In this document: positions 406-26,417 of the stretch, piece after piece
How the letters are laid out: each line of letters begins with the position of its first letter
Position numbering within the stretch: position 1 is the stretch's first letter
From: a virus
Lineage: Duplodnaviria; Heunggongvirae; Uroviricota; Caudoviricetes
Length of the DNA stretch: 31,556 bases
Direction: 5' to 3' (one strand)
Virus record (IMG/VR): IMGVR_UViG_2917849834_000001
Location: 1 to 31,556 of that record
Position numbers and translations under genes: made by a program
The notes under the pieces: model-generated
Told to the model about the DNA's origin: nothing
Databases searched by the model: none
The model's input: only the letters and a program-made list of their open reading frames with translations

Positions 406-461
406 GTTCTCCAGATTTAAGTCAGGAACGTGTCAACGCTATTCAGGACGGGTCAGGACCA

Positions 462-485: not shown

Positions 486-609
486 TTTAATGTCACAGGG
501 AGTCGCGACTCCGTTGCGTATCCTTTTTTGTCTCCTCACCGTCTGGTCGGTGTCCTGATGAGACTTCTAACTTCCTGTTTTTGTTGTGATAACACCATCC
601 AATCATGAT

Positions 610-654
610 TGGTGGAGCTGGCGGGAGTTGAACCCGCGTCCGAAATTCCTACAT
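610..654 (-). other. Prophage attachment-site core: 45-nt copy of the 3' end of tmRNA gene ssrA (minus-strand sense ATGTAGGAATTTCGGACGCGGGTTCAACTCCCGCCAGCTCCACCA), not a complete ssrA gene
   Basis: Reverse complement of 610-654 matches the 3' terminus of enterobacterial ssrA as I recall it, including the acceptor-arm and CCA end; sequence 5' of it (655 onward) diverges from ssrA and runs into the integrase gene, so this is the phage-host junction carrying the core, with the intact ssrA expected at the other prophage end outside the window. Confidence 0.7.
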
Positions 655-771
655 ACCATTTTTACACTAACGAAATCATATTTTATCATTTTAAATCATG
701 ATGTTAGTGTTAATCTGTATTTGCTTGTTTTACTTGTTTTTAGTGTTCCGCCGCCAAAATGCCGCCATTTA

Positions 772-1797: not shown

Positions 1798-1799
1798 GA

Positions 1800-2438
1800 T
1801 TAGATACTCTTAATCACTTTTACCACACGCCCTACAACGTCTACGTCATCAACTGCACATTCAAAGGTTGTTTCTTCCTGATGAACAACAAGTTTATTTC
1901 CGGGAATTCGAGCTACTTTTACGATGCTTTTCACTCCATCAATATCAACAAGCCAGGAGCCATTACTGATCTGTTTTACAGATACATCAACAATAAAACT
2001 TTCTGTTGTCGTTTGTATGAATAGATAGTTTGACGAGTCGCCCTCAACCAATCTGCTATCTAATAAAATTTCGTCATATGATTGAAGTTCACCATTTCTT
2101 AACTCTGTGTATTTGATACTGGGAGCTACGATTTTAGAAAGTGGTCTAATTGTGACGTCATTATCATTTTTGAGAATGTTTGCGTCACCGTTATCTGCAT
2201 ACATATCACCCTGTCCGGTTGCCAACCAAAGAAGCGAGATCCCGGTTTCTAGAGCACATTGAATTACCCATTCTGCTGGGAAACTATCTCTTAAGTATCT
2301 GTTTGCCATGGTGCTTTTTGATACTTTTAAGTGTTCGCAGAGCTGTTGGCGTGAGCTGAAATTGTAGGCTTTTATCAGCCTGTTGATGGCATCACGACCC
2401 CCACTATCATTTCCACCCTTGATTAGACTCATAATCAA
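1800..2438 (-). CDS. cI: 186-type CI immunity repressor
   Basis: 212-aa ORF directly upstream of int on the same strand; shares recognisable blocks with coliphage 186 CI (CALETGxxLxWLxTGxG; SWLVDIDGVKSIVKVARIPGNKL; FECAVDDVDVVGRVVKV). Confidence 0.85.
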   Translation of the reverse strand: MIMSLIKGGNDSGGRDAINRLIKAYNFSSRQQLCEHLKVSKSTMANRYLRDSFPAEWVIQCALETGISLLWLATGQGDMYADNGDANILKNDNDVTIRPLSKIVAPSIKYTELRNGELQSYDEILLDSRLVEGDSSNYLFIQTTTESFIVDVSVKQISNGSWLVDIDGVKSIVKVARIPGNKLVVHQEETTFECAVDDVDVVGRVVKVIKSI

Positions 2439-2443
2439 ACTCC

Positions 2444-2472
2444 TTGACGTATATAAAATGCGATCTTAATAT
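2444..2472 (+). promoter_or_regulatory. Candidate rightward early (lytic, pR-like) sigma70 promoter: TTGACG-N17-TAATAT
   Basis: Near-consensus -35 (2444-2449) and -10 (2467-2472) hexamers with 17-bp spacer in the cI/apl divergent region, about 45-75 nt upstream of the first rightward ORF. Confidence 0.55.
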
Positions 2473-2515
2473 CCATTCATGGTTTGAAAAGCAAAACCAA
2501 ACCACATAAAACGAG

Positions 2516-2797
2516 ATGAGACGATTACAAACTAAGAGATACTGCACTATGAGCAACGACATTTCAATTCGTGTACCAAAAGTGATGGCGACACCAGCAG
2601 AGTTCGCGGAATGGGAAGGCTACTCTCGCGGTTCGGTATATCAAATGATTCATAATGGAAAGCTCGCTAAATTCATGGAAAAAAAGGAAAAAGTAAAAGA
2701 CAGAGTATGTATACGTTACCTTGAGTACAAAAAGGAACAAGTCAGGAAAAATATGGGCCAATCCAATTTCAACTTTAATGTCATCGTTGGTGACTAA
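2516..2797 (+). CDS. Apl/Cox-like HTH regulator (excisionase/early repressor class); true start may be the ATG at 2546
   Basis: Small basic ORF at the Cox/Apl position (first rightward gene opposite cI); HTH-like segment ATPAEFAEWEGYSRGSVYQMIHNGKL. Confidence 0.7.
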   Translation: MRRLQTKRYCTMSNDISIRVPKVMATPAEFAEWEGYSRGSVYQMIHNGKLAKFMEKKEKVKDRVCIRYLEYKKEQVRKNMGQSNFNFNVIVGD

Positions 2798-2829
2798 GTT
2801 CAATTATGAGAACTTTCTAAGGGGGCAGC

Positions 2830-3339
2830 ATGTTTGATTACAAGATTTCCAAACATCCGCATTTTGATGAAGCCTGTAGAGCTTTTGCATTACGTCACAA
2901 TATGGCGAAGCTGGCAGAACGTGCAGAAATGAATGTTCAGACACTGCGAAACAAACTCAACCCAGAACAACCGCATCAGCTTACTGCACCAGAAATTTGG
3001 CTGCTTACTGATCTGACAGAAGACTCAACACTGGTAGATGGTTTTCTGGCACAGATTCATTGTCTGCCATGTGTACCGATTAATGAGGTAGCAAAAGAGA
3101 AACTGCCACATTACGTCATGAGTGCAACCGCAGAGATCGGGCGTGTTGCTGCAGGTGCTGTTTCTGGCGATGTAAAAACCAGTGCAGGCCGTCGTGATGC
3201 GATCAGCAGCATTAACTCTGTTACACGACTGATGGCGCTGGCTGCTGTTTCATTGCAGGCCCGTTTACAGGCTAATCCTGCGATGGCGAGTGCAGTTGAT
3301 ACCGTGACTGGCCTCGGTGCTTCATTCGGTTTGCTGTGA
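2830..3339 (+). CDS. cII: CII-like lysogeny-establishment regulator (186 CII family)
   Basis: 169-aa ORF with RBS GGGGGCAGC upstream, at the position and of the size of 186 CII; HTH-like N-terminal region. Confidence 0.7.
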   Translation: MFDYKISKHPHFDEACRAFALRHNMAKLAERAEMNVQTLRNKLNPEQPHQLTAPEIWLLTDLTEDSTLVDGFLAQIHCLPCVPINEVAKEKLPHYVMSATAEIGRVAAGAVSGDVKTSAGRRDAISSINSVTRLMALAAVSLQARLQANPAMASAVDTVTGLGASFGLL

Positions 3340-3346
3340 GGTGCTT

Positions 3347-3547
3347 ATGCTGACGAAAGAACCATCATTTGCATCGCTGCTGGTAAAACAGAGCCCGGCA
3401 ATGCACTACGGTCACGGCTGGATCATGGGGGAGGATGGTAAACGCTGGCATCCGTGCCGTTCACAAGATGAATTGCTGGCAGAACTATCTACGAAAAAAC
3501 GGGGGAACAAATGGCTATTGAAGGCGCTGCGGCGACTGTTCCATTAA
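3347..3547 (+). CDS. Hypothetical small early protein (position of 186 fil)
   Basis: ATG at 3347 preceded by GAGGTG; 66 aa; the ORF track's longer version starts at a GTG at 3317. No recognisable domain. Confidence 0.45.
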   Translation: MLTKEPSFASLLVKQSPAMHYGHGWIMGEDGKRWHPCRSQDELLAELSTKKRGNKWLLKALRRLFH

Positions 3548-3852
3548 GCCCCGGTGAACGCCTGAATGGACTTAACCACATTGCGGAGTTAAGGGCGAAA
3601 GTATTTGGCCTGAATATTGAGTCAGAGCTTGAGCGGTTTATTAAAGATATGCGTGATCCACGGGATATCAATAACGAACAAAATAAACGAGCACTGGCAG
3701 CCATATTCTTTATGGCAAAAATTCCGGCTGAACGTCATAGCATCAGCATCAATGAGCTGACCACTGACGAAAAGCGGGAGTTGATTAAAGCAATGAATCA
3801 TTTTCGTGCAGTGGTGAGCTTATTTCCCAGACGGCTAACCATGCCGAATTAA
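3511..3852 (+). CDS. Hypothetical early protein, 113 aa
   Basis: ORF with GGGGGA RBS, overlapping the end of the previous ORF; position corresponds to 186 dhr/P2 B region but no similarity recognised. Confidence 0.45.
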   Translation: MAIEGAAATVPLSPGERLNGLNHIAELRAKVFGLNIESELERFIKDMRDPRDINNEQNKRALAAIFFMAKIPAERHSISINELTTDEKRELIKAMNHFRAVVSLFPRRLTMPN

Positions 3853-3919
3853 CCAACTAATGAAATTAATGGCGTAAACCCGCCGGGCATCCCTTTATCT
3901 AAATTCAGGAGAATTGATT

Positions 3920-4153
3920 ATGCGTAATATTGAAATCCTCACGACTAAAACCGGACCGGATGATGCAGGGCTTAATATTTTACTGACAGAGGCTCGTCTG
4001 GAAGAACGCCGGGCAAGGGCTGAAGCAATGGCAGCTCGCCTTGATAGCCTGGCGTGTCATATCTCATCCCGTCAGCTAAACCACGTGGAAGCGGCAGAAC
4101 TGCTGCGTGTGACTGCTGAAGCAATCCAGAACGAAGCGCAGGAGATCCACTAA
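3920..4153 (+). CDS. Hypothetical small early protein, about 77 aa
   Basis: ATG at 3920 preceded by CAGGAGAA; Ala/Glu-rich helical protein; ORF track start at 3914 is a TTG. Confidence 0.5.
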   Translation: MRNIEILTTKTGPDDAGLNILLTEARLEERRARAEAMAARLDSLACHISSRQLNHVEAAELLRVTAEAIQNEAQEIH

Positions 4154-4380
4154 TGGCTGATGCAATGGATCTCGTACAGCAGCGCGTTGAAGAAGAACGC
4201 CAGCGCCATATCCGTGCTGCCCGTGCCAAAACACCGGGCGTGTCTCGCGTGCTTTGCATTGAGTGTGAAGCGCCAATTCCGCCAGCACGCCGCCGTGCCA
4301 TTCCGGGTGTGCAGCTTTGCATTACCTGCCAGGAAATTGCAGAGCTGAAAGGCAAACATTACAACGGAGGTGCTGTATGA
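4153..4380 (+). CDS. TraR/DksA-family C4 zinc-finger protein
   Basis: 75 aa with CxxC...CxxC (CIECEAPIP...CITCQ) arrangement typical of phage TraR/DksA-like proteins (P2 orf82 class); start overlaps previous stop. Confidence 0.75.
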
Positions 4381-4679
4381 CAAGGGCAGTACGTATCCAT
4401 CAATTAAAAATTGCACCTAAGTATTTCAACGCTGTGGTTGCAGGTCAAAAGACGGCTGAACTTCGTAAAGACGATCGTGGCTATAAAGTTGGTGATGTTC
4501 TTTCTCTTTGCGAATGGAAGCATGGCGTATTTACGGGTAGAGAATGGGCTGCTGTTATCACTCATATACTTCCGGTTAATGACGTCATGGTAGTTTCAGA
4601 ACAATGGGTGATGCTATCAATTCGTCCATTAACCCCATTGGAAGCTTTAGGATATGTTATTGCAGGAGGTGCTGTATGA
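4377..4679 (+). CDS. DUF3850/ASCH-like small protein
   Basis: ATG at 4377 overlaps the TraR stop (ATGA); about 100 aa; assignment to the DUF3850/ASCH-like family is from memory of similar phage proteins. Confidence 0.5.
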
Positions 4680-5533
4680 GCACCATCCTGAAATGGGCGG
4701 GAAATAAAACCGCCATTATGTCCGAACTGAAAAAACATCTTCCTGCTGGCCCGCGACTGGTTGAACCTTTCGCGGGTTCCTGTGCTGTGATGATGGAGAC
4801 GGATTACCCCAGCTATCTTGTTGCGGATATTAATCCTGATTTAATCAACCTCTATAAAAAGGTTGCTGCTGATTGCGAGGCGTTTATATCTCGTGCCAGA
4901 GCTTTATTTGAGGAAGCAAACAGGGATGTGGCTTATTACAACATAAGGCAGGAGTTTAATTACTCCACTGAAATTACTGATTTCATGAAAGCGGTATATT
5001 TCCTGTATCTCAATCGTCATGGTTACCGTGGGTTATGTCGCTATAACAAGAGCGGGCATTTCAACATTCCGTACGGTAATTATAAAAATCCGTATTTCCC
5101 TGAAAAAGAAATTCGCGCATTTGCAGAGAAAGCCCAGCGGGCAACGTTTATCTGCGCCAGCTTTGATGAAACGCTGGCGATGTTGAAGGCGGGGGATGTG
5201 GTGTATTGCGATCCGCCTTATGACGGTACGTTTTCCGGCTATCACACTGACGGCTTCACTGAAGATGACCAGTATCACCTGGCATCCGTTCTTGAACATC
5301 GGTCATCAGAAGGACATCCGGTCATTGTTTCTAACAGTGACACATCCCTGATCCGTTCGCTGTATCGCAATTTTACTCACCACTACATCAAGGCAAAACG
5401 CAGCATCGGTGTAGCAGCTGGTGAGAGTAAATCTGCAACAGAAATCATCGCTGTTTCCGGGCCGCGCTGCTGGGTGGGATTTGATCCTTCGCGTGGCGTG
5501 GATAGTTCTGCCGTGTACGGAGTGCGTGCATGA
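4676..5533 (+). CDS. dam: DNA N6-adenine methyltransferase (Dam-like orphan MTase)
   Basis: ATG at 4676 overlaps the preceding stop; SAM-binding motif I (EPFAGSCAV) near the N-terminus and catalytic DPPY motif (YCDPPYDGT) later, the order expected for Dam-class enzymes. Confidence 0.85.
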
Positions 5534-7944
5534 GCCATGCTGATATGAACAACTGCAGCGGCTTTAACGAGGTCGCCGCAGCATTCTCATGGAACAGCCC
5601 GAAAAAGGCCATTAACCCTTATCTGGACCCGGCGGAAGTTGCGCCGGTTTCTGCGCTTTCAAACCTGATCACTCTGTACGCTACCGATAACGAGAAGGAA
5701 CAACTGCGCCGCGAGGCACTGAGTGATCAGGTCTGGGAGCGTTATTTCTTTAATGAATCCCGTGATCCTGTCCAACGCGAAATGGAGCAGGATAAGCTAA
5801 TTAGCCGGGCAAAGCTGGCGCATGAGCAGCAGCGTTTTAATCCGGACATGGTCATTTTGGCGGACGTTAACGCCCAGCCTTCCCATATCAGCAAGCCGCT
5901 GATGCAACGTATTGAATACTTCAGCAGCCTGGGCAGGCCAAAGGCTTATTCCCGCTATTTGCGTGAGACGATTAAGCCATGTCTGGAACGGCTGGAGCAT
6001 GTCCGCGACAGTCAGCTATCCACTTCTTTTCGCTTTATGGCGAGCCATGAAGGGCTGGACGGCCTGCTGATCCTGCCTGAAATGAGTCAGGATCAGGTGA
6101 AACGCCTGTCTACTCTTGTCGCTGCGCATATGAGCATGTGTCTTGATGCCGCTTGTGGTGATTTGTATGCCACCGATGACGTTAAGCCAGAAGAAATCCG
6201 CAAGACATGGGAAAAGGTGGCAGCAGAAACCCTGCGACTGGATGTTATCCCGCCTGCGTTTGAGCAACTCCGTCGGAAAAGAAACCGCCGTAAACCCGTG
6301 CCCTATGAACTCATTCCGGGTTCGCTGGCGCGTATGTTATGCGCCGACTGGTGGTATCGGAAATTATGGAAGATGCGTTGCGAATGGCGGGAAGAGCAGT
6401 TGCGTGCTGTCTGCCTGGTCAGCAAAAAAGCATCTCCCTATGTCAGCTATGAAGCCGTGATGCATAAACGTGAGCAGCGCCGTAAGTCGCTGGAGTTTTT
6501 TCGTTCTCATGAACTGGTGAACGAAGACGGCGACACGCTGGACATGGAGGATGTGGTAAACGCCAGCAGCAGCAACCCTGCGCATCGCCGCAATGAGATG
6601 ATGGCCTGTGTTAAAGGCCTGGAGCTTATCGCGGAAATGCGCGGTGACTGCGCCGTTTTCTACACCATCACCTGTCCGTCACGTTTCCATTCCACGCTAA
6701 ATAACGGCAGGCCCAACCCGACCTGGACAAATGCGACGGTAAGACAAAGCAGTGATTATCTGGTCGGCATGTTTGCTGCATTTCGTAAGGCAATGCATAA
6801 AACCGGGCTGCGCTGGTATGGCGTGCGGGTGGCTGAGCCGCACCATGACGGTACTGTGCACTGGCATCTCATGTGTTTCATGCGCAAAAAAGACCGCCGC
6901 GCCATTACTGCATTGTTGCGTAAGTTTGCCATCCGTGAAGACCGCGAGGAGCTGGGCAATAACACGGGGCCACGCTTTAAGTCTGAGCTGATAAACCCGC
7001 GCAAAGGAACGCCGACAAGCTACATCGCGAAATACATCAGTAAGAACATTGACGGACGTGGTCTGGCTGGCGAGATCAGCAAGGAAACGGGTAAATCCCT
7101 GCGTGATAACGCCGAATACGTTAATGCCTGGGCGTCTCTGCATCGTGTTCAGCAGTTCCGCTTCTTTGGTATTCCGGGGCGTCAGGTGTACCGTGAACTT
7201 CGCTTGCTGGCTGGTCAGGCGGCAAGGCAACAGGGTGACAAAAAAGCAGGTGCGCCAGTACTGGATAACCCGCGCCTTGATGCCATTCTGGCTGCTGCTG
7301 ATGCTGGCTGTTTTGCCACCTACATTATGAAGCAGGGCGGTGTACTGGTTCCCCGTAAATATCACCTCATCAGAACCGCTTATGAAATCAACGAAGAGCC
7401 GACCGCCTATGGCGATCACGGTATTCGTATTTATGGCATCTGGTCACCCATTGCAGAGGGCAAGATCTGCACTCATGCGGTGAAGTGGAAAATGGTTCGT
7501 AAGGCCGTTGACGTTCAGGAGGCGGCAGCCGACCAGGGCGCTTGCGCCCCTTGGACTCGTGGCAATAACTGTCCCCTTGCTGAAAATATGAACCAACAAG
7601 GGAAAGACAAATCAGCTGATGGGGATACCAGAACGGATATCACCCGCATGGATGACAAGGAGTTGCACGATTACCTGCACAGTATGAGCAAAAAAGAGCG
7701 CCGGGAACTGGCAGCAAGATTACGCCTGGTTAAACCGAAACGGCGTAAAGACTACAAACAGCGAATTACAGAGCGTCAGCGTCAGCAGCTCGTCTATGAA
7801 CTGAAGTCCAGAGGATTTGATGGCAGCGAGAAAGAGGTCGATTTACTCCTTCGCGGCGGCAGTATTCCGTCAGGAGCAGGCCTGCGTATCTTCTATCGGA
7901 ACCAGCGTATCCAGGAAGATGATAAATGGCGGAACCTGTATTAA
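5530..7944 (+). CDS. A: Replication initiation endonuclease (P2 gpA / 186 RepA family, rolling-circle)
   Basis: 804-aa ORF at the P2 gene A position; HUH-type motif region (VHWHLMCF), large size, start overlapping the dam stop. Confidence 0.85.
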
Positions 7945-8037
7945 TTACGCTGATTAACAATTAATGCTCTAAATAATAAGCAAAGGATAAATCCTATTGA
8001 TTTTAAAAAAACTTTTTACTTTAACGATATTATTATG

Positions 8038-8057
8038 TACTGTATGTAAAACCAGTG
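8038..8057 (+). promoter_or_regulatory. Candidate LexA (SOS) box TACTGTATGTAAAACCAGTG, with a second ATACAGTA half-site at about 8064-8071
   Basis: Fits CTG-N10-CAG with an AT-rich centre, in an AT-rich promoter-like region immediately upstream of the small ORF/DinI-like pair. Confidence 0.55.
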
Positions 8058-8102
8058 GTTAAGTATACAGTATTATCTACCCACAGTGAGATAGGAGGGA
8101 AG

Positions 8103-8291
8103 ATGCAGGATTATTTTTTAGAGTCGTTGAAACTCCAGCGAATTGATTTTTTTCTTAAGCTTGTAGTGGCCAGTGAATGTAGTGATCAGGAAAAAGAGCT
8201 TGCGCTGCTTTGGATTTCAGAACTGACGGATGAACTCATGGCAAAAATCAGAACCCACGAATATAACCGCTCAATGGATGTTGTTAACTGA
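8103..8291 (+). CDS. Small hypothetical protein (62 aa), first gene of putative SOS-controlled pair
   Basis: ATG at 8103 with strong RBS GGAGGGA (8094-8100); the ORF-track start at 8055 is a GTG lying inside the LexA-like box. Confidence 0.55.
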   Translation: MQDYFLESLKLQRIDFFLKLVVASECSDQEKELALLWISELTDELMAKIRTHEYNRSMDVVN

Positions 8292-8301
8292 GGGGTAATT
8301 T

Positions 8302-8535
8302 ATGCGCATTGAAATAATGATCGATAAAGAGCAAAAAATTAGCCAGTCTACCCTGGATGCCCTTGAATCCGAGCTTTACCGCAATCTGCGCCCCCTGTAT
8401 CCAAAAACGGTAATCCGCATCCGCAAAGGTAGCTCTAACGGTGTGGAACTGAGCGGACTGAAACTGGACGAAGAAAAAAAACAAGTGATGAAAATTATGC
8501 AGCAGGTATGGGAAGACGACAGCTGGCTGCATTAA
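8302..8535 (+). CDS. DinI-family protein (Tum-like candidate antirepressor module)
   Basis: 77 aa; MRIEIMIDK...YPKTVIRIRKGSSNGVELSGLKLDEEKKQVMKIMQQVWEDDSWL aligns with E. coli DinI (MRIEVTIAK...ETWESADDWF) from memory; RBS GAGGGG 8 nt upstream. Confidence 0.75.
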   Translation: MRIEIMIDKEQKISQSTLDALESELYRNLRPLYPKTVIRIRKGSSNGVELSGLKLDEEKKQVMKIMQQVWEDDSWLH

Positions 8536-8543
8536 GAAACGTT

Positions 8544-8572
8544 GCCCCCAGGAGGATTCATTCTGATGGGGG
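8544..8572 (+). terminator. Possible hairpin/weak terminator after the DinI-like gene
   Basis: GCCCCCA ... TGGGGGC 7-bp stem with about 15-nt loop followed by TGGTTTG; loop is long, so efficiency is uncertain. Confidence 0.3.
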
Positions 8573-8687
8573 CTGGTTTGGGCAACGAGTGAAACGAGGC
8601 GTAAGGTGGGCGGATATTTTGATAAGCAATAGTCCGTTTAGAGTCAGAAGCGAACGTTACTGACATCAAACTGGTGAGGAGTTCAGT

Positions 8688-9467
8688 ATGTATAATGCTT
8701 TTACTCTTCCCATATGGAGCCCTAACATGAATCGTTTGACTGAGATTGGTTTTATCAAGGTAGGATTCTGGCAGATTATAGACGGCAGCCTGAAATATCA
8801 TCTCGATGACAGATTCACAGATGTGAAGAACAACCTCTATGCATTTGTTTGTGATGGTGAGGTAAAGTACGTTGGTAAAACCACTCGTCTACTACGTAAC
8901 AGGATGTACCATTATTCACGTCCTGGCCCTTCCCAATCTACGAATATAAAAAATAACGCTAACATTATTGAGATGCTATCTAACAATGTTGCCGTAGATA
9001 TCTTGGTGCTTCCAGATTCAGGACTAATGCGCTATGGGCAATTTCACTTGAATCTTGCTGCTGGGCTTGAGGATTCAATCATTAGTCTTATCCGTCCTGA
9101 ATGGAATGGAATTCAGAGCCCAGTCTTGAAGAGTGAGGAATTAGTATCATCTGAAACTGAAATCATCACACATAGCAGTATCAAACAATTCACTTTCAAT
9201 ATGACAGATACGTACTGGCGTAGAGGATTCTTCAATGTGCCGGTAGTAAGTTCTCAACATTTTGGTAAAGACGGAGAGAACATTAAAATTGTTCTTCGTG
9301 ATGGTACGTCTTCCATCACTGCAATGATTAACCGAACTGCCAATCAGACTGGTTCACCCCGCATTATGGGGGGCGTTGAGCTCAGACAGTATTTTCAACT
9401 CAATTACATAATTGGTGATATCGTTCCTTTCGAAGTGATCACACAAAACATGATGAAGCTAAAATAA
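8688..9467 (+). CDS. GIY-YIG-like nuclease-domain protein with an uncharacterised C-terminal domain (possible B3/EcoRII-N-like DNA-binding fold); cargo gene
   Basis: 259-aa ORF with RBS GAGGAG; residues about 50-145 show GIY-YIG spacing (NLYAF ... KYVGKT ... RLLRNRMYHY ... E ... PEWN). Visibly AT-richer than flanking phage genes. Confidence 0.6.
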   Translation: MYNAFTLPIWSPNMNRLTEIGFIKVGFWQIIDGSLKYHLDDRFTDVKNNLYAFVCDGEVKYVGKTTRLLRNRMYHYSRPGPSQSTNIKNNANIIEMLSNNVAVDILVLPDSGLMRYGQFHLNLAAGLEDSIISLIRPEWNGIQSPVLKSEELVSSETEIITHSSIKQFTFNMTDTYWRRGFFNVPVVSSQHFGKDGENIKIVLRDGTSSITAMINRTANQTGSPRIMGGVELRQYFQLNYIIGDIVPFEVITQNMMKLK

Positions 9468-9740
9468 AAAGTGTTTCTTCCTTCCTACGGTCGTATCAGC
9501 CTGAAAAGTTCTGTGGGGCGATCTGAGCACTTCCAATCAAATACGCAGATATTATCAAAGCACATCGGGTAGCAGCAGACCGTGAACTTCCGCCCCTGAC
9601 TCACAGCATTCCGTTAGCTTTGATAGCTCGAATGTGTCGGTTTTCAAGTGGTCAATCAGATACGTACCTTCACCCCACTCGTTAGTGCATGTCTATGCCG
9701 CATGAATCCGCATGATCGTTTGAGGATCGTTTTTGCTGAG

Positions 9741-10083: not shown

Positions 10084-11124
10084 TCAGTCTTTTACAGAAA
10101 TATCTAATGTGTAGGGTTCGAAGCGGACCACTTCTTCACCCAGCCAGTCATTCAGCTCCTGCAGTCGCTTTTGCAGTGGCATCAGTTCATTGCGGACGAA
10201 GACACGGCTCGCTTTTTCCACATCACCAAAGCCGCCAGTGTTGTTGGGAATGATGCCCATCATTTGCGGCGGTACGCGGTGAGCCGCCATCATGTCATCG
10301 CGGCTGACGTTCTTGATGTTCAGAAATTCATCCTTCGCCGCGACTTCCGACAACGGGATAATCTGAATGCCATCTTTTTTGCCGTTAGGCGAGTACATAA
10401 ACAGGTTGCGGAAGTTGCCCGGTCCTTTAGCACTTTTCATTGCCTTGCGGATGTTGTTCACATCCTCCTGGTTCTGTGCGGCGTCGGTCATATACATGAT
10501 GAAGCCTGCGTGGCTGCCGTTAATGTAATACTTGCGGCGGAACAGCGTGGCGGATTCGTTGAGCAGAGCTGACGGAATGGCAGAAAGGTAACCCGGCAGA
10601 CCATAAATCTCCTGGTTGATATCCGGCTCCATCAGGTGGAAGACGTTACCTTTTGTGAACTGATACGGCTGTGTAGTCAGGCTGTATTGCACAAACCAGT
10701 ATGTTTCAAGGTCAAGCCCGCGTCGGGTGTATTTTGCCAGTGCAGGCTCCAGCAAAATAACTTCACCAAAGCGGTTCGTGCGTTTCTCCAGGTAGGCGTT
10801 ACCAAAAACCAGATAGTCCTGCACAAAACGGGTAAATGCCTGCTGGCTGAGAAGGCGATGTGGAATATAGGTACTGCTGATAATGTCACGCTTAACACTG
10901 ATCGGGGAGCTGTGGTGCACGGCGGCGCGGAAGGTGCGCGCCAGTCCGTCAAAGCTGACGGGCGGCTCATACCAGCGATCCATCTGTACGCATTCCACAT
11001 AGTCCAGCAGTTCGCGGCGGTCCAGTACAGGAATGGGATCACCAAAGCTGAAAGCCTCCGCAACGGATTTTTTAGTTTCTTCTGCAGTTACGGTTTCGCC
11101 TGGCGCGATATGTTCTTTCATCAA
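10084..11124 (-). CDS. Q: Portal protein (P2 gpQ)
   Basis: 346-aa ORF, same size and position as P2 Q, transcribed leftward toward cos; start overlaps the stop of the upstream terminase gene. Confidence 0.88.
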   Translation of the reverse strand: MMKEHIAPGETVTAEETKKSVAEAFSFGDPIPVLDRRELLDYVECVQMDRWYEPPVSFDGLARTFRAAVHHSSPISVKRDIISSTYIPHRLLSQQAFTRFVQDYLVFGNAYLEKRTNRFGEVILLEPALAKYTRRGLDLETYWFVQYSLTTQPYQFTKGNVFHLMEPDINQEIYGLPGYLSAIPSALLNESATLFRRKYYINGSHAGFIMYMTDAAQNQEDVNNIRKAMKSAKGPGNFRNLFMYSPNGKKDGIQIIPLSEVAAKDEFLNIKNVSRDDMMAAHRVPPQMMGIIPNNTGGFGDVEKASRVFVRNELMPLQKRLQELNDWLGEEVVRFEPYTLDISVKD

Positions 11125-12887
11125 AAAATCTCCACAATATTGCTGGTATTGGCGGACTCGCCCTGCAGCGGTTCGTTAAACAGTGCGTGCATTGTTGCCC
11201 AGGCCAGATCGGCATGGCTGGCTTCTTCGCTGCGGCTGGCTTCATAGGTCGGGCGGTTGCCGCTGGCGGTGGTGGCGCGACGGATTGCCATGAATGACTG
11301 CGCAATGTCGGTGTGCCCGGCGTCAAACTCCAGACGGCGGTGGCTGATAATGTCGTAGGCCTTGAGCACCAGGGCATTTTTAACGTTGGGGTTGTAGACA
11401 AACTCCCGGACGGCAGGAAAGAACGCTTTCACGTTCTCATAAACCCCGTGACCAACGCCGGTCGAGTCGATACCGATATAGGTCACGTTGTACTGTTCGG
11501 TCAGTTTTTTGATCGCGTCAGCCTGGGCGCGGAAGTCCATCCCACGCCACTGGTGACGCTCAAGAATGCGGAACTTACCGCCCGGCACGGCTGGCGGTGC
11601 CACCACCACGCATCCGGCGCTGTCGCCGTTCTGCGTACCTTTTGCCGGGTCATAACCGATCCACACTTCGCGCCAGCCAAACGGGCGTAGCGCCAGTGCA
11701 TGAAAGTCGGTCCAGACTTCCCAACTGTCCACCATGCACGCCTGCAGCTCGCTGAGCGGGAACACGGATGCGAGATCGTCCACGAACTCACACATCAGCA
11801 GGTTCTGGTATTCGTCCGGGCTGTACTCCATGCGCAACTGGTCGAGATCGAACAGGTTACAGCCGCCGCGCACCGCATCTTCCACGGTGACTATCTGGCG
11901 GTATTGCCCGTCTGCGCACAGCAGGCCGGGGGCCAGATTGTTGTGGGACAGGTCGATGTCCACCTTATCGGCTTTGTTGCGCCCACGGTTGAACAGCGCA
12001 CCGGACCAGAACGGATAAGCACTGTGGGTCAGGCTGGATGGCGTGGAAAAATAGGTTTGTCGCCATTTTTTGTGAATAGCCATACCGGAAGCTACTTTGC
12101 GCAGCTCCTGGAATTTCGGTATCCAGAAATATTCATCCAGATACAGGTTGCCGTGGTAACTCTGGGCAGTGCGGGCATTGGTGCCGAGGAAATACAGTGT
12201 GGCCCCGTTAGGAAGCACCATCGGATCGCCTTTCAGCTCCACTTCCACTTCTTTGGCGAAGTCGATGATGTACTGTTTAAAGACGTGGGCCTGAGCCTTG
12301 CTGGCGGAAAGGAAAATCTGGTTACGCCCGGTAAGCAGGGCGTCAATCAGGGCTTCACGGGCAAAGTAAAAGGTCGCGCCGATCTGGCGTGACTTCAGCA
12401 GGTTGCGGATGCGGTTGGTTTTTCCGGCTTCCCACCAGTGGCGCTGGTAGTTGAACATGGAGGAATGGAAGATTTCTTCCAGCTTCTCAATCTGTTCATC
12501 GGTGAAGACATTCTTTTCCGGCTGACGGCGCGGGCCTTTGTTGCGGTTGGCGACGTTAGGGTTTAAGTCGGCTTCGTTGCCGCCATTGTTAAACTTGCCG
12601 ATCCGCGCGTGGCGCTCCGACTGGCGCGCCAGCAGGTCAATCTCTTTGAAATCTTTCCCTTCTTTGTGCTCCTTCATAATGAGCTGGCAGTAGCGTGCGG
12701 CGGTGGTGAGCTGCATCTGATCCAGCGGCCCATAGTCACCCCACTTGTCGCGTTTTTTCCAGCTGTGAACGGTTGCAACTTTCTCGCCCAGCATTTCAGC
12801 AATGCGGGCGACGCGGTATCCCTGAAAGTACAGCAGCATGGCCTGCCGACGGGGATCGAGATCTGCGGGTGTCAGTGTGGTGTTCAT
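11121..12887 (-). CDS. P: Terminase large (ATPase) subunit (P2 gpP)
   Basis: 588-aa ORF (P2 P is about 590 aa), divergent from the O-N-M-L operon as in P2. Confidence 0.88.
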   Translation of the reverse strand: MNTTLTPADLDPRRQAMLLYFQGYRVARIAEMLGEKVATVHSWKKRDKWGDYGPLDQMQLTTAARYCQLIMKEHKEGKDFKEIDLLARQSERHARIGKFNNGGNEADLNPNVANRNKGPRRQPEKNVFTDEQIEKLEEIFHSSMFNYQRHWWEAGKTNRIRNLLKSRQIGATFYFAREALIDALLTGRNQIFLSASKAQAHVFKQYIIDFAKEVEVELKGDPMVLPNGATLYFLGTNARTAQSYHGNLYLDEYFWIPKFQELRKVASGMAIHKKWRQTYFSTPSSLTHSAYPFWSGALFNRGRNKADKVDIDLSHNNLAPGLLCADGQYRQIVTVEDAVRGGCNLFDLDQLRMEYSPDEYQNLLMCEFVDDLASVFPLSELQACMVDSWEVWTDFHALALRPFGWREVWIGYDPAKGTQNGDSAGCVVVAPPAVPGGKFRILERHQWRGMDFRAQADAIKKLTEQYNVTYIGIDSTGVGHGVYENVKAFFPAVREFVYNPNVKNALVLKAYDIISHRRLEFDAGHTDIAQSFMAIRRATTASGNRPTYEASRSEEASHADLAWATMHALFNEPLQGESANTSNIVEIF

Positions 12888-20735: not shown

Positions 20736-21333
20736 TCTGCTGCCACCGGGTTCAACACCACTGGAGCGCCGACTGGCGCAAACCTGCAGCGGGATTTCTG
20801 ATTTGCAGGTGCCTCTGCGTGACCTGTGGGATCCGGCTACCTGTCCGGTCAGTTTCCTGCCTTATCTCGCCTGGGCGTTCTCTGTGGATCGATGGGACGA
20901 GGACTGGACGGAAAGCGTCAAACGCCAGGTGGTAAAGGATGCCTTTTATATCCATCAGCATAAAGGAACCACCAGTGCCGTGCGGCGGGTGGTGGAGCCG
21001 TTCGGCTTTCTGATCCGCATTATTGAGTGGTGGCAGACCGGATAAGCACCCGGCACGTTTCGCCTGGACATTGGTGTGCAGGACCAGGGCATCACTGAAG
21101 ATACCTATCTGGAACTTGAGCGGCTGATAAGCGATGCCAAACCATGTAGCCGTCACATGATCGGCATGTCCATCAATCTGCAGACCAGTGGCCCGCACTG
21201 GGTGGGGGCCGCCAGTTATCTTGGCGAAGAAATCACGATTTATCCGTATATCAACGAAACGATTATTTCTGGCGGCACCGCGCATGAGGGCGGGGCAGTC
21301 CACGTTATTGACACAGTGAGAGTGAATCCATGA
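20728..21333 (+). pseudogene. I: Baseplate/tail protein I (P2 gpI) interrupted by an in-frame TAA at 21043-21045
   Basis: ORF 20728-21045 (EWWQTG, stop) and ORF 21076-21333 are in the same frame; translation across the stop continues APGTFRLDIGV, matching the middle of P2 gpI (about 176 aa as one protein). Confidence 0.6.
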
Positions 21334-22757
21334 GCACAAAATTTTATACCCTGCTGACGGAGATTGGTGCGGCGAAACTTGCCAGCGCCACTGCACTTGG
21401 TGTGCCGCTTAAAATTACCCATATGGCGGTAGGCGATGGCGGCGGAACATTACCAACGCCGGACGCAAAGCAGACGGCACTGGTAAATGAGAAACGCCGG
21501 GCTGCGCTGAATATGCTCTATATCGACCCGCAGAACAGCAGCCAGATTATTGCTGAACAGGTGATCCCCGAAAACGAGGGCGGTTGGTGGATCCGTGAAG
21601 TGGGCCTGTTTGATGAATCAGGGGCATTGATTGCCGTGGGAAACTGCCCGGAAAGCTATAAGCCGCAACTAGCTGAAGGCAGCGGGCGCACCCAGACCGT
21701 GCGCATGGTGCTGATTACCAGCAGTACCGATAATATCACACTGAAAATTGACCCTTCAGTGGTGCTGGCAACCCGCAAGTATGTGGATGACAAGGTGCTT
21801 GAGCTTAAGGTGTATGTGGATGACCTGATGGCAAAGCATCTTGCTGCTGCAGATCCTCATACGCAGTATGCGCCCAAAGACAGCCCAACATTGACTGGCA
21901 CGCCGAAAACGCCAACAGCACCGGCGGGAACTAACACGACTCAGATTGCTAGCACGGCATTTGTGCAGGCGGTGGTCACTGCGCTAAATAACGCACTGGC
22001 GTTGAAAGCTCCACTGGCAAGTCCGGCCCTGACCGGAACGCCGACGGCTCCGACTGCAGCGCAAACGGCGAACAATACGCAGATTGCCACCACGGCATTT
22101 GTGAAAGCGGCAGTTGCCGAGATGGTCGGTTCATCGCCGGAGGCGCTGGATACGTTAAATGAATTGGCTGCTGCGCTGGGGAATGATCCTAACTTTGCGA
22201 CAACAGTAATGAGTGCGCTGGCGGGAAAAATGAACAAAGCAGCTAATGGCGCTGATATTGCCGATGTTTCTGCTTTTCTAAAAAACCTTCATCTTGGGGA
22301 GGGCAGTGCGTTGCCAGTCGGTGTTCCTGTTCCGTGGCCTACTGCAATACCGCCGGAAGGTTGGTTGAAGTGTAATGGAGCATCATTCAGTTCCTCGCAA
22401 TATCCGAAACTGGCGCAGGTTTATCCGTCATTAAAATTACCAGATCTACGCAGTGAGTTTATTCGCGGCTGGGACGATGGGCGTGGCGTAGACGCTGGAC
22501 GTCAGGTTCTAACGTCTCAGACTGATGCTATGCAGCCGATTATCGGCTCCATTGGCTATGGTACAAACGGTATGTTTACTTATGCTGATGGAGCTTTTAC
22601 GGGTATAGATCGTGAAAGCGGAGACGGTATTGTTACACAGGCAACAAGCATCTCACAATATAAACAGGCTCACTTAGATTCAAGTACGATAACACGAACA
22701 GCGGCAGAAACACGTCCACGGAATATTTCATTTAATTACATTGTGAGAGCAGCATAA
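21330..22757 (+). CDS. H: Tail fibre protein (P2 gpH family) with variable C-terminal receptor-binding region
   Basis: N-terminus (MSTKFYTLLTEIGAAKLA...MAVGDGGG) matches P2 gpH; internal tandem repeats (about 21879-22140); the conserved LNELAAALGNDPNFATT block; C-terminal third unlike P2 and AT-richer. Confidence 0.85.
   Translation: MSTKFYTLLTEIGAAKLASATALGVPLKITHMAVGDGGGTLPTPDAKQTALVNEKRRAALNMLYIDPQNSSQIIAEQVIPENEGGWWIREVGLFDESGALIAVGNCPESYKPQLAEGSGRTQTVRMVLITSSTDNITLKIDPSVVLATRKYVDDKVLELKVYVDDLMAKHLAAADPHTQYAPKDSPTLTGTPKTPTAPAGTNTTQIASTAFVQAVVTALNNALALKAPLASPALTGTPTAPTAAQTANNTQIATTAFVKAAVAEMVGSSPEALDTLNELAAALGNDPNFATTVMSALAGKMNKAANGADIADVSAFLKNLHLGEGSALPVGVPVPWPTAIPPEGWLKCNGASFSSSQYPKLAQVYPSLKLPDLRSEFIRGWDDGRGVDAGRQVLTSQTDAMQPIIGSIGYGTNGMFTYADGAFTGIDRESGDGIVTQATSISQYKQAHLDSSTITRTAAETRPRNISFNYIVRAA
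21879..22140 (+). repeat. Two tandem copies of an about 40-aa tail-fibre repeat within gene H
   Basis: Protein segments SPTLTGTPKTPTAPAGTNTTQIASTAFVQAVV and SPALTGTPTAPTAAQTANNTQIATTAFVKAAV. Confidence 0.6.
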
Positions 22758-23353
22758 TGACAGAAGCGAAACTAAATAATGAGTTTATAGCTGTGGAATC
22801 TGGCAATATAACGGTGTTTAACTTTGATATTGAAACTCGTGAATATCTTTCTTCTAGTGTTGAATTTCTTGCTGTAGGGGTTGGGATTCCAGCTAATTCA
22901 TGCATTGATATGCCGGGTAAAAGTAAAAAAGGGTTAACCATTTGCCGGACTAAGGATCTTACCGCGTGGGAATATATTGCTGATCATCGAGGTGAGACTG
23001 TTTACAGCACCGAAACTGGCAAAAAAATAGCTGTAACAGTGCTCGGCGATTACCCAGAAAAAACTACGAAACTACCTCCTGCTACACCATACGATAAGTG
23101 GAACGGTAGTGCATGGGTGACAGATACCGAGATGCAGCACGAGGTTGACGTGGAAACTGCTGATCAGAAGAAAGCGGAGCTTCTGGCAAAGGCTCAGCTA
23201 ACAATCAATCTATGGCAGACAGAACTACAATTAGGAATTATCAGTGATGAAGATAAAGTCAGACTAATCACTTGGATGAATTACATCAAAGCGGTGCAGT
23301 TGGTAGACACGTCAACTGCGCCAGATATAACGTGGCCGAGGAAGCCCGAGTGA
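22757..23353 (+). CDS. G: Tail fibre assembly chaperone (P2 gpG / Tfa family)
   Basis: 198 aa immediately after the fibre gene (ATGA overlap). Confidence 0.8.
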   Translation: MTEAKLNNEFIAVESGNITVFNFDIETREYLSSSVEFLAVGVGIPANSCIDMPGKSKKGLTICRTKDLTAWEYIADHRGETVYSTETGKKIAVTVLGDYPEKTTKLPPATPYDKWNGSAWVTDTEMQHEVDVETADQKKAELLAKAQLTINLWQTELQLGIISDEDKVRLITWMNYIKAVQLVDTSTAPDITWPRKPE

Positions 23354-23378
23354 CTGAGAATTAAATGGTTAGTATCAT

Positions 23379-23420
23379 CCTCCCCCACACTGCCTATATG
23401 GTATGAATACGAGGGGGAGG
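23379..23420 (+). terminator. Possible hairpin after the tail-fibre operon
   Basis: CCTCCCCC ... GGGGGAGG 8-bp stem with about 26-nt loop, followed by a T-rich stretch; loop is long, so uncertain. Confidence 0.3.
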
Positions 23421-23480
23421 CTGTTTGTTGTCTGTTTCTGTGATAATATTAGATTCTCGTTTTTTAATAAAAAAATCAAT

Positions 23481-24491
23481 ATGAAAGAGAATAAAATACG
23501 TTCTGCCGATGGCGTGAGAGGTTTCGCTTTGATGATTGTTGTGGTGATGCATGCTACGGGACTATTCTTTCCCTCACTTCATGATCATCTTGGAGGTACG
23601 GGGCAGCCCGGTGTTTGGTTGTTTTTTGTTCTTAGCGCCTTTTTGTTGACACATAAATTTATTAATTCTGGTTTTTCGTTTTTGAATGTGTTGAGTTATC
23701 TTTTAGGGCGAACAATAAGGATATTACCGATTTTTTATATTGCAGTATTAATTTATTACCTTATGGGATTTTATGATTTAGAGAAAATGAAATCGATAAT
23801 TTCATTTGATAGTACTTACATCCATCTCTGGACTATTCCGATAGAATTCAAGTTTTACTTTTTGTTGCCGATTGTGGTTTATCTCGCATCTAGTATCCAG
23901 AAAGTTGCAGGTAGAAAATATTCTTTGTTGTTTTTGATATTGTTAACCTTAGCGTTCGCTTTTATATACCCTTATACGGATGACGAAATCAACGGTAGGC
24001 TACCGTATTATATTCCTGTTTTTATGTATGGAATTATAATTGCGTTTATGTATAACTATTTTCAAATTAAAATATCATCTCTCGTTAGTGATGGGGTGTC
24101 AATTGCGATTATATTAATATTTATAATGTTGACCCCTCCTTTTCAGGGGGCTAATGGTTGGCTGGGTAATAAATTTGTGGTATTAGGGCCATTTATTGCT
24201 CTCTTTGTATATCTGCAAGTAAATTCCAGTGGGTATGTAAGCGCGGTTTTATCTTCAAAAATCATGGCGGATTTGGGGAAATATAGTTTTTCAATTTATT
24301 TGTTTCATATAATGATAATTTTTATTGTTTATCCTAAATTTTTGGATAATGTTACTGCATACTTAGTTACTATAGCTTTATGTATTGGCGGTGGGGCTAT
24401 TGCCTATCATTGCATTGAATCTCCCTTGGAATCGTTCAGACATAAGCTTATGAAAAGAATAACGCAGGCTTATCAGAATCAAAATATTTAA
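23481..24491 (+). CDS. Acyltransferase family 3 (OafA/Oac-like) integral membrane protein; candidate lysogenic-conversion gene
   Basis: About 336 aa from the ATG at 23481; N-terminal RSADGVRGFALMIVVVMH motif typical of acyltransferase-3 proteins; about 10 hydrophobic segments; strongly AT-rich; located between G and FI. Confidence 0.75.
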   Translation: MKENKIRSADGVRGFALMIVVVMHATGLFFPSLHDHLGGTGQPGVWLFFVLSAFLLTHKFINSGFSFLNVLSYLLGRTIRILPIFYIAVLIYYLMGFYDLEKMKSIISFDSTYIHLWTIPIEFKFYFLLPIVVYLASSIQKVAGRKYSLLFLILLTLAFAFIYPYTDDEINGRLPYYIPVFMYGIIIAFMYNYFQIKISSLVSDGVSIAIILIFIMLTPPFQGANGWLGNKFVVLGPFIALFVYLQVNSSGYVSAVLSSKIMADLGKYSFSIYLFHIMIIFIVYPKFLDNVTAYLVTIALCIGGGAIAYHCIESPLESFRHKLMKRITQAYQNQNI

Positions 24492-24505
24492 GTAAAAGCA
24501 AAAAA

Positions 24506-24534
24506 GGCTCTCGTCAACCGACGAAGCCTTTTAA
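24506..24534. terminator. Hairpin terminator flanked by A-run and T-run (possibly bidirectional)
   Basis: AAAAAA-GGCTCTCGTC-AACC-GACGAAGCC-TTTTAAAA; stem has one bulge. Confidence 0.55.
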
Positions 24535-24625
24535 AACGAGTATTAATTCCCGTCCTGTAAAGTGCCCCCTATCCCAGAACAACGTTTTTAGTTATCAACG
24601 CCGTTCCGAAAATTTCCTGCGACGT

Positions 24626-24643
24626 TGTGTGATTAACCGTACA
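24626..24643. promoter_or_regulatory. Late promoter activator site TGT-N12-ACA upstream of the tail sheath gene (PF-like)
   Basis: TGTGTGATTAACCGTACA, about 75-95 nt upstream of the FI start. Confidence 0.5.
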
Positions 24644-24719
24644 ACGCACATCAGCTGTCTGCATGGCGTAATCAATACAACATAGGGCGAAGCCTAAACC
24701 AATCAGGAGGTTCGCCACT

Positions 24720-25892
24720 ATGGCTCAGGATTACCACCACGGGGTGCGCGTTGTTGAAGTCAACGAAGGCACCCGATCCATTACCACGGTGAGCACCGCC
24801 ATCGTGGGCATGGTCTGCACGGGCGATGATGCCGATGCAAAAATGTTTCCTCTTAATAAACCCGTGCTGATCACTGATGTACTGACCGCCAGCGGTAAAG
24901 CGGGTGAGTCCGGCACGCTGGCCCGTTCGCTGGATGCCATCGCTGACCAGGCAAAACCCGTGACCGTTGTTGTGCGTGTGCCACAGGGTGAAACGGAAGA
25001 AGAAACCACAACCAATATCATTGGCGCAGTGACCGCCGAGGGTAAAAAAACAGGCATGAAAGCCCTGTTATCTGCCCAGTCACAGCTCGGCGTTAAACCG
25101 CGCATTCTCGGCGTGCCAGGTCACGATAACAAAGCCGTTGCGACTGAGTTGCTGAGCGTGGCGCAAAGCCTGCGCGGGTTTGCTTACCTGTCGGCGTATG
25201 GCTGCAAAACAGTGGAAGAAGTGCTTACCTACCGCGAAAACTTCAGTCAGCGTGAAGGGATGCTGATCTGGCCGGATTTTATCAGCTGGGACACGGTGCT
25301 GAATGCCGAAGCAACGGCATATGCCACCGCGCGTGCGCTTGGCCTGCGCGCCAAAATTGACGAGCAGACCGGATGGCACAAAAGCCTGTCCAACGTGGGC
25401 GTGAACGGTGTCACCGGAATTTCTGCTGATGTGTTCTGGGATCTGCAGGACCCGGCAACAGATGCAGGTCTGCTGAACCAGAACGACGTCACCACGCTTG
25501 TGCGCAAAGACGGTTTCCGCTTCTGGGGGTCCCGCTGCCTGAGTGATGACCCGCTCTTTGCCTTCGAAAACTACACCCGCACGGCGCAGGTACTGATGGA
25601 CACGATGGCAGAAGCGCACATGTGGGCGGTGGACAAACCGCTGAACCCGTCGCTGGCCCGCGACATTATCGAAGGTATCCGCGCCAAAATGCGTAGCCTG
25701 GTCAGTCAGGGCTATCTCATTGGTGGTGATTGCTGGCTGGACGAGTCGGTGAACGATAAAGACACTCTGAAAGCCGGGAAGCTCACCATCGATTACGACT
25801 ACACGCCAGTGCCGCCACTTGAAAACCTGATGCTGCGACAGCGCATCACCGATCAGTACCTGGTGAATTTCTCCAGCCAGGTCAGCGCGTAA
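24720..25892 (+). CDS. FI: Contractile tail sheath protein (P2 gpFI)
   Basis: 390 aa; long stretches align with P2 FI from memory ([33 protein letters not shown]); RBS CAGGAGG. Confidence 0.9.
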
Positions 25893-25901: not shown

Positions 25902-26417
25902 ATGGCTTTACCACGCAAATTAAAACACCTGAACCTGTTTAACGACGGGAACAACTGGCAGGGGATCGTTGAGTCGCTGACGCTGCCGAAATTCACCCGC
26001 AAATATGAGAAGTATCGCGGCGGCGGTATGCCGGGGGCGGTGGATGTGGATCTGGGGCTGGATGACGGCGCACTGGATACAGAATTTTCCATTGGTGGTA
26101 CTGAACTGCTGCTGTTTAAGCAGATGGGCAAAGCTACGGTGGATGGCATCCAGCTGCGCTTTACCGGCTCTATCCAGCGTGACGATACCGGGGAAGTGCA
26201 GGCCGTGGAGCTTGTGGTGCGTGGACGTCACAAAGAAGTGGATTCCGGCGAGTGGAAGACGGGCGAAAGCAACACCACCAAAGTGACCAGCACCAACAGC
26301 TACGCGAAGCTGACCATCAATGGTGAGGTGCTCTATGAAGTGGACCTTATCAACATGGTGGAAATTGTGGACGGAGTGGACCTGATGGAAGCGCACCGCA
26401 ACGCCCTCGGCCTCTGA
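25902..26417 (+). CDS. FII: Tail tube protein (P2 gpFII)
   Basis: 171 aa (P2 FII is about 172) immediately after the sheath gene. Confidence 0.88.
   Translation: MALPRKLKHLNLFNDGNNWQGIVESLTLPKFTRKYEKYRGGGMPGAVDVDLGLDDGALDTEFSIGGTELLLFKQMGKATVDGIQLRFTGSIQRDDTGEVQAVELVVRGRHKEVDSGEWKTGESNTTKVTSTNSYAKLTINGEVLYEVDLINMVEIVDGVDLMEAHRNALGL

Follow-up and report, generated by a model that had tools for sequence, protein, structure and literature searches.

The stretch of viral DNA analysed here, referred to as the window (31,556 nucleotides (nt); positions 1 to 31,556 of IMG/VR record IMGVR_UViG_2917849834_000001), is almost wholly made up of a P2-like prophage with the gene order V-W-J-I-H-G-[AT3]-FI-FII-E-T-U-D, in addition to genes for int, CI, gpA, portal, terminase and gpO. 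The gene under study is the one marked AT3 (for acyltransferase family 3), which is situated between G, the gene for the tail-fibre assembly chaperone, and the sheath gene FI, and which an initial annotation, made from the sequence alone, had read as an AT-rich gene for lysogenic conversion via acylation of a surface polysaccharide. Both its placement between tail-fibre and sheath genes (G and FI being assigned via Pfam) and its AT-richness held up, with a GC content of 0.338 for the gene against 0.52 for the whole window. The locus comprises the following features:

21330–22757: fibre gene H (Pfam Phage_tail_fib and Collar)
22757–23353, + strand: tail-fibre assembly chaperone gene G, 198 residues (Pfam Caudo_TAP, E = 2e-33)
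23350–23378, + strand: candidate sigma-70 promoter P1, GTGACT-17-TATCAT, overlapping the G stop codon (consensus scan, 9/12 matches)
23379–23420, + strand: hairpin 3′ of gene G, CCTCCCCC / GGGGGAGG, with an 8-bp G+C stem and a 26-nt loop
23439–23447, + strand: TGTGATAAT, an extended –10-like motif that ends 34 nt 5′ of the ATG
23481–24491, + strand: AT3-only integral-membrane acyltransferase gene, 336 residues plus stop (PF01757, phrog_3333)
24502–24532, unstranded: terminator-like hairpin of bidirectional form between an A-run and a T-run, closing the acyltransferase unit
24606–24719, + strand: right-hand junction, i.e., the conserved FI upstream region in which homology to relatives without the acyltransferase restarts
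24720–25892: sheath gene FI

Gene boundaries, composition and selection

The G–FI interval holds one long open reading frame (ORF; 23403–24491, + strand), within which the ATG at 23481 was taken to be the true start of the acyltransferase gene, since nucleotide homology with a non-phage copy in Ewingella starts at 23480, the ATG at 23403 is missing from the Enterobacter asburiae copy (L009), and homologues are 333–340 residues long (N-terminus MKENKI...). The start at 23403, whose ATG is located in the loop of the upstream hairpin, was rejected, as was a 356-residue call for protein P0001, which relies on an ATG specific to locus L002.

The acyltransferase gene forms the lowest-GC stretch of the window. 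Its coding sequence has a GC content at third codon positions (GC3) of 0.326, compared to a GC and GC3 of 0.569 and 0.662, respectively, for FI, and to a GC content of ca. 55% in the flanks. The same was seen in every context (the window and seven others), the gene having 32–38% GC vs. 49–55% in its surroundings, so that the AT-richness is a stable property of the gene and no sign of a very recent arrival. Moreover, the ratio of nonsynonymous to synonymous substitution rates (dN/dS) was 0.09–0.10 vs. three orthologues, with dS up to 1.4. The gene is thus compositionally foreign, intact and under strong purifying selection, and its intact frame and low dN/dS indicate that it is functional. Its foreign composition and the lack of a close characterised orthologue could be expected of a decaying passenger gene that has no current function, but this option is hardly credible and is contradicted by the selection analysis: the frame has stayed open and dN/dS has stayed at ~0.09 over this range of dS, the motifs described below are invariant, and the protein is 100% identical in three more IMG/VR viral contigs (L028–L030).

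The G–FI junction as a variable site

The nearest sequenced phages were Escherichia phage 500465-1 (Peduoviridae, Wadgaonvirus; 94%) and a Klebsiella prophage set (93%). At its G–FI junction (L001, 4913–6345), phage 500465-1 carries an inverted alternative fibre tip, a chaperone and a DNA invertase, which together form a host-range switch. In the window phage, the acyltransferase stands in place of this fibre segment and no invertase accompanies it. Specifically, homology with phage 500465-1 restarts at 24625 (94%), only past its invertase stop codon, and homology with E. coli prophages restarts at 24606, which corresponds to the final ~30 nt of their invertase gene. Any invertase remnant 3′ of the acyltransferase therefore amounts to at most ~30 nt (24606–24636) matching the invertase 3′ end of some E. 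coli prophages. The conserved region upstream of FI contains a TGT-N12-ACA dyad, which we take to be of the P2 late-promoter type. Since no direct or inverted repeats were found to flank the insertion, it is not borne by a transposon or insertion sequence (IS).

The junction had been described beforehand as a known variable cargo position of P2-like phages, and the comparison with the nearest relatives agrees with this. In P2, the same map position between G and FI is taken by the Z/fun locus, a variable cargo and defence hotspot (PMC13586616), with the difference that the P2 cargo is Z/fun whereas the closest relatives of the window prophage carry the invertible fibre segment and its invertase. 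Acyltransferases go unmentioned in two recent surveys of P2 hotspots (including PMC13586616).

Family, fold and motifs of the encoded protein

The encoded protein matched the Pfam profile PF01757 (Acyl_transf_3) over positions 3–324 of 326, with a score of 94.1 bits (E = 1.1e-26; curated cut-off of 31 bits), and the PHROGs family phrog_3333, annotated as ‘O-acetyltransferase’ (E = 8e-42). Hydropathy analysis revealed ~10 hydrophobic membrane segments, and an AlphaFold2 model based on 66 homologues was all-helical, with a predicted local distance difference test score (pLDDT) of 93.1 and a predicted template modelling (TM) score of 0.91. The closest fold to this model in the Protein Data Bank (PDB) was that of human HGSNAT (8vlv_A; probability of 1.0, TM-score of 0.46), a member of the TmAT superfamily that is reported to share the AT3 fold (PMC12423673). 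A search of the PDB by sequence gave no match, no solved AT3 structure being detectable in this way.

Among the 66 homologues, an R13-X10-H24 motif in helix 1 is well preserved, with H24 invariant and R13 conserved in at least 90%. Both arginines of an RXXR motif in helix 3, towards the cytoplasm (R77-T-I-R80), which aligns with RARR of the Oac acetyltransferase of phage Sf6, are invariant as well. Other invariant residues are W117, T118, E122, S269, S271, Y273, H276, E313 and R320, the first three of which belong to the sequence WTIPIE (117–122) and make up the WT..xE motif that is shared with Oac. Mutagenesis of OafA, OafB and Oac has established that these enzymes require the R/K-X10-H and RXXR motifs (PMC7448272, PMC9833829). 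The membership of acyltransferase family 3, the multi-pass membrane topology and the N-terminal R...H motif, all of which had been proposed in the initial annotation, were thus each recovered by profile search, hydropathy and structure prediction, or alignment.

The C-terminus of the protein lies ~25 residues past helix 10, and PF01757 is its only Pfam domain, without an 11th helix and without an SGNH domain. This architecture makes it an AT3-only enzyme like Oac; no SGNH partner gene was found near the acyltransferase in the window. Overall, the sequence identifies the protein as a full-length, intact member of acyltransferase family 3, in which all testable features of the family are present.

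As the locus corresponds to a known hotspot of anti-phage cargo (PMC13586616), and as AT3 proteins form a transmembrane pore (PMC9833829), the gene might instead be a Z/fun-hotspot defence gene that acts without glycan acylation, e.g., as an abortive membrane pore. A PADLOC search nevertheless gave no match, and the strict conservation of the catalytic and coenzyme A (CoA)-binding motifs argues for enzymatic acyl transfer, making such a role very improbable.

Hairpins and promoter-like motifs around the gene

Hairpins had been claimed on both sides of the gene, and the downstream one (24502–24532) was confirmed. It was more stable than shuffled sequences (z = –3.7 on the + strand and –4.1 on the – strand, with 0/200 shuffles as stable; the scan flagged the – strand), and its stem is kept in L002, L009 and L011, of which L011 displays two two-sided changes. 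A terminator-like hairpin followed by a T-run could also be discerned by eye 3′ of the gene in four unrelated contexts, L012, L023, L024 and L025. For the upstream hairpin (23379–23420), which is followed by a T-rich tract, the claim failed on energy (z = –1.1, not distinct from shuffles) and stood on conservation, as the same three loci preserve its stem, where one compensatory two-sided change and wobble changes were seen. The late V-W-J-I-H-G transcript probably ends at this upstream hairpin. A comparison with Rfam yielded sub-threshold noise only.

A TGTG(A/G/T)TAAT-like motif was identified 32–42 nt 5′ of the start codon in the window and in L002, L009, L011, L023, L024, L025 and the non-phage locus L012, with TGTGATAGA and TGTGGTATT as the variants in L023 and L012, respectively. 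The DNA around this motif has diverged among the contexts. Further upstream, a hexamer pair similar to that of P1 (TTGACG...GATTAT, spotted by eye) occupies the same place in L009. A transcript from P1 would start within the 5′ arm of the upstream hairpin and could therefore, speculatively, escape termination.

Dam-dependent phase variation of the gtr type depends on GATC sites. No GATC site was found upstream of the acyltransferase gene, which therefore lacks the sites needed for such regulation.

The hallmarks of a moron that were found are presence or absence of the gene between genes that adjoin each other in related phages, a distinct base composition and an own terminator. Judged from its sequence, the acyltransferase gene resembles an autonomous moron, equipped with a terminator and a conserved candidate promoter.

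A different expression pattern is conceivable, in which read-through from H–G would make the acyltransferase a late lytic function, modifying receptors on infected cells and debris and thereby sparing the progeny rather than converting the lysogen. The gene indeed reads in the same direction as the late operon and follows G by 127 nt, and the weak energy and long loop of the hairpin after G mean that termination may leak. We nevertheless regard a late lytic function as improbable, given that the promoter-like motif is separate from the late operon and conserved even in the non-phage copy, and that the gene has been kept in a prophage remnant that lost most of its structural genes. This remnant (L009, positions 1–9000, in the chromosome of Enterobacter asburiae) is a degraded P2-like prophage of which int, CI, a truncated H, G, a partial FI, D and ogr remain next to an intact acyltransferase gene with 79% identity to that of the window.

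Genomic contexts of the relatives

Orthologues with 79–97% identity were all located at the G–FI junction of P2-like prophages, including one in a Silvania metagenome-assembled genome (L011) whose fibre and chaperone differ from those of the window. At 61–71% identity, orthologues were found immediately 3′ of a Caudo_TAP chaperone gene in L024, a P2-like prophage with an inverted tail operon, and in L023 (integrated beside yfdC) and L025, which are myovirus prophages with a different baseplate type. Relatives with 39–53% identity, which come from podovirus-type prophages and viral contigs, lie immediately 3′ of a tailspike gene. In the P22-like E. coli prophages among them (L013–L015, and phage vB_EcoP-611R6), the preceding tailspike has a Head_binding domain, and in other podovirus-type contigs the preceding gene either has a Tail_spike_N domain or is a 758-residue ORF without a Pfam match. 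Phage vB_EcoP-611R6 and L013–L015 harbour the nearest phage relatives outside the Tfa-linked clade (40–45% identity, same size), and resemble the window in that the gene comes straight after that for the receptor-binding protein, in the same orientation.

A chaperone or tailspike gene is located immediately 5′, on the same strand, in 9 of the 10 closest IMG/VR loci, and was recognised by Pfam immediately upstream in at least 15 of the 41 IMG/VR relatives that have an upstream ORF. This constant position beside receptor-binding genes in several unrelated temperate backbones strengthens the interpretation of the gene as one for lysogenic conversion that would affect phage receptors. No near-identical copy was found in the phage and E. 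coli complete-genome collections, and one scan of genome contigs returned distant relatives only (26–28% identity).

Some relatives are arranged differently. The Ewingella relative (60% identity) lies on its own in the chromosome, outside any phage, and the E. coli prophages L026 and L027 contain a homologous tip and chaperone directly followed by the next tail gene, at the place where L024 has its AT3 gene. Both cases show that the acyltransferase is dispensable.

The enzyme might also perform the same chemistry on a target that is unrelated to the phage receptor, such as capsule, enterobacterial common antigen (ECA), lipopolysaccharide (LPS) core, periplasmic glucans or peptidoglycan, and the benefit would then accrue to the host (immune evasion, resistance to lysozyme or serum) rather than consist of superinfection exclusion. 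AT3-only proteins do modify many glycans, with WecH acting on ECA as an example (PMC9558356), and both the phage-free Ewingella copy and a relative with 38% identity in Yersinia that is paired with a SASA-domain gene are in line with such a role. On the other hand, an unrelated target makes it hard to explain why the gene is repeatedly and tightly placed after chaperone or tailspike genes across unrelated backbones, and why it is co-transferred with the fibre tip (see below). On balance, we consider an unrelated target unlikely, though still worth taking seriously, and a target connected with the receptor of the fibre remains the preferred interpretation.

With regard to possible periplasmic partners, the Yersinia enterocolitica relative just mentioned (L021, 6001–7436, near smpB) overlaps the downstream SASA-domain gene. 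Moreover, one viral contig (L039, 1667–5000) has an AT3–SGNH gene directly 5′ of an AT3-only relative, and three more viral contigs have GDSL-lipase genes 5′ of the acyltransferase relative. These neighbours of distant relatives are possible periplasmic partners; no partner of the SASA, SGNH or GDSL-lipase type was found in the window.

Fibre tip, chaperone and acyltransferase as a unit

The relatedness among these loci extends beyond the acyltransferase gene itself. The Collar-domain fibre tip (H residues ~290–475) is 67–73% identical between the window and L009, L024 and L025, all of which carry the AT3 gene, and the G chaperone is 71–74% identical in the same three loci. In comparison with L028–L030, the H-G-AT3-terminator block of the window (21330–24719) is 98–100% identical, vs. 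91–95% for the J/I, FI and tape-measure genes, and L002 displays a gradient as well, with 96% identity in AT3 vs. 79–84% in the backbone. Because the identity of the block exceeds that of the backbones, the block appears to have changed hands at a later time than that at which the backbones separated. A mildly new point is that fibre tip, chaperone and acyltransferase seem to move together from one unrelated phage backbone to another.

Going one step further, we tentatively suggest, while leaning towards doubt, that these genes might constitute a mobile ‘bind-and-mask’ cassette, in which a Collar-type tip, its chaperone and a matched receptor-modifying enzyme would be swapped whole between unrelated temperate backbones. 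If so, a phage would gain a new host-range determinant and receptor-specific superinfection exclusion in one event. If the unit indeed moves whole, lysogens should resist phages with the matching fibre, and the acceptor glycan could point to the receptor of a widespread Collar-type fibre, which would in turn aid host-range prediction and the design of phage-therapy cocktails.

A trace of recombination is present in L011, where the region 5′ of the acyltransferase (6629–6870) contains a 55-bp duplicate of the FI 5′ end (98% identity) and a ~180-bp remnant of the 3′ end of a window-type G gene. This duplicate and remnant are a recombination scar from the acquisition of the module.

Proposed function and known counterparts

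Taken together, the analysis supports the initially proposed lysogenic conversion by acylation of a surface polysaccharide. More specifically, we propose that the gene is a moron of a P2-like phage, the AT3-only product of which would O-acylate a surface glycan of the lysogen, probably the receptor of the fibre, and so lead to serotype change and superinfection exclusion. We assign this interpretation a probability of roughly 65%.

By analogy with OafA, OafB and Oac, the protein would reside in the inner membrane of the lysogen with both termini in the cytoplasm. Acetyl-CoA or another acyl-CoA would enter a central pore lined by R13, R77 and R80, and His24 in helix 1, towards the periplasmic side, would hand the acyl group on to a hydroxyl in a sugar of some envelope glycan at the periplasmic face. 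As acceptor, the repeat units of O-antigen, linked to undecaprenyl, would be the likeliest, or else a different glycan of the LPS or capsule; O-antigen comes first among the candidates, and LPS core, capsule and ECA are alternatives. The modified glycan would be the receptor, or an access route, of the fibre encoded just upstream, as suggested by the position of the gene and by the precedents of Sf6 and BTP1. In this way, the prophage would alter a host surface antigen and shield its host against superinfection, both by the same phage and by others whose fibres are related.

Among the closest known systems is Oac, the O-antigen O-acetyltransferase of Shigella phage Sf6, together with OacB, OacC and OacD. 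Oac brings about serotype conversion and superinfection immunity (PMC9558356), and both Oac and GtrC/OafB of phage BTP1 acetylate O-antigen and thereby block their own tailspikes (PMC9558356). Like the window protein, Oac is an AT3-only protein of a temperate phage, with ~333 residues and ~10 transmembrane helices, and the alignment revealed a common catalytic His in helix 1, RXXR, FFxxS and LWT.P.EF. The oac gene also adjoins a gene for a receptor-binding protein, the tailspike, and is annotated with a promoter and a terminator of its own. In contrast, Sf6 is a P22-like podovirus in which oac is convergent with the tailspike gene, whereas the gene in the window belongs to a P2-like myovirus and is co-oriented behind a chaperone gene. 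Architecture, setting and motifs of the window protein thus fit those of the Oac type, without orthology to a characterised member.

Other counterparts share part of these features. ORF16 of SPC-P1 (from S. Paratyphi C) and hyp24 of Kapi1 were matched by position alone, which is equivalent to that of the gene in the window; ORF16 is very AT-rich (31.65% GC; PMC3022927). In these podoviruses, as in the P22-like ones, the gene is located between tailspike and int, and a tailspike takes the place of fibre and chaperone. OafA and OafB (GtrC of BTP1) of Salmonella resemble the window protein in their AT3 domain, R-X10-H and RXXR motifs and location in a phage or phage remnant, and GtrC guards against the very phage that encodes it (PMC9558356). 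They differ in possessing both an 11th helix and a fused SGNH domain, located in the periplasm, which carries out the last transfer step; the window protein has neither.

Several observations weigh against the proposed function. A search of NCBIfam gave no match, and hence no equivalog model, and identity to the best characterised relatives is low, at 23% for Oac of Sf6 (over 227 residues, E = 3e-5, which is superfamily-level similarity and not orthology) and 27% for the AT3 domain of BTP1 GtrC (over 95% of the query). With regard to expression, a scan of the region found sigma-70 sites to be no more frequent than expected by chance, and TGTGATAAT occurs as a single copy in the window vs. 0.71 copies expected. 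Since this lone copy is at chance level, the promoter argument rests on positional conservation and not on the match as such. P2-type fibres classically bind LPS core and not O-antigen, so that the acceptor may not be O-antigen. In the protein itself, the position of the helix-2 motif FFXISG reads FFVLSA (48–53), in which F48, F49 and S52 are invariant in the family and the Gly is replaced by Ala, unlike in Oac; this Gly (G53) is critical in Oac, and the equivalent G46A substitution is tolerated in OafA (PMC7448272). Finally, for Kapi1 it is reported that over-expression of single candidate genes, the positionally equivalent gene among them, did not reveal what causes its LPS change.

The annotation as such is an ordinary one, i.e., a classic type of lysogenic-conversion gene in a known cargo slot. 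Phage-borne AT3 acetyltransferases beside receptor-binding genes are already classic, and the G–FI junction is already known as a cargo site. Glycan acyltransferases of prophages matter in that they change serotype, the targets of vaccines and antibodies, and phage susceptibility, and the clade described here is an uncharacterised one that occurs beside receptor-binding genes in P2-like, other myovirus and podovirus-type prophages of Enterobacterales.

Other features of the window

Outside of the acyltransferase locus, the following genes were assigned:

772–1797, – strand: integrase
1800–2438, – strand: CI repressor
4604–5533: Dam-type N6-adenine methyltransferase (D12 class), in the early operon, immediately 5′ of gpA
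5530–7944: gpA replication protein
10084–12887, – strand: portal and terminase genes
25902–26417: tube gene FII

Further genes in the window include those for a CII-like regulator, gpO, the baseplate, the tape measure and gpD.

At its left end, the window starts with a fragment of an IS3-family transposase (1 to ~493), followed by a 3′ fragment of ssrA (up to ~654) beside the integrase gene; ARAGORN found no complete transfer-messenger RNA (tmRNA) at this end. The two fragments suggest that the prophage integrated at the tmRNA gene in the manner of Fels-2 and that an IS inserted next to it.

A second island of low GC content (0.40–0.43) is located at 8000–9500, at the cos-proximal cargo hotspot of P2. 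It contains ORFs at 8055–8291 (phrog_698, function unknown), 8302–8535 (DinI-like) and 8688–9467 (259 residues). At its N-terminus, the product of the last of these resembles an endonuclease (phrog_1111, E = 1.4e-9); it had no match in Pfam or PADLOC and may represent uncharacterised defence cargo.

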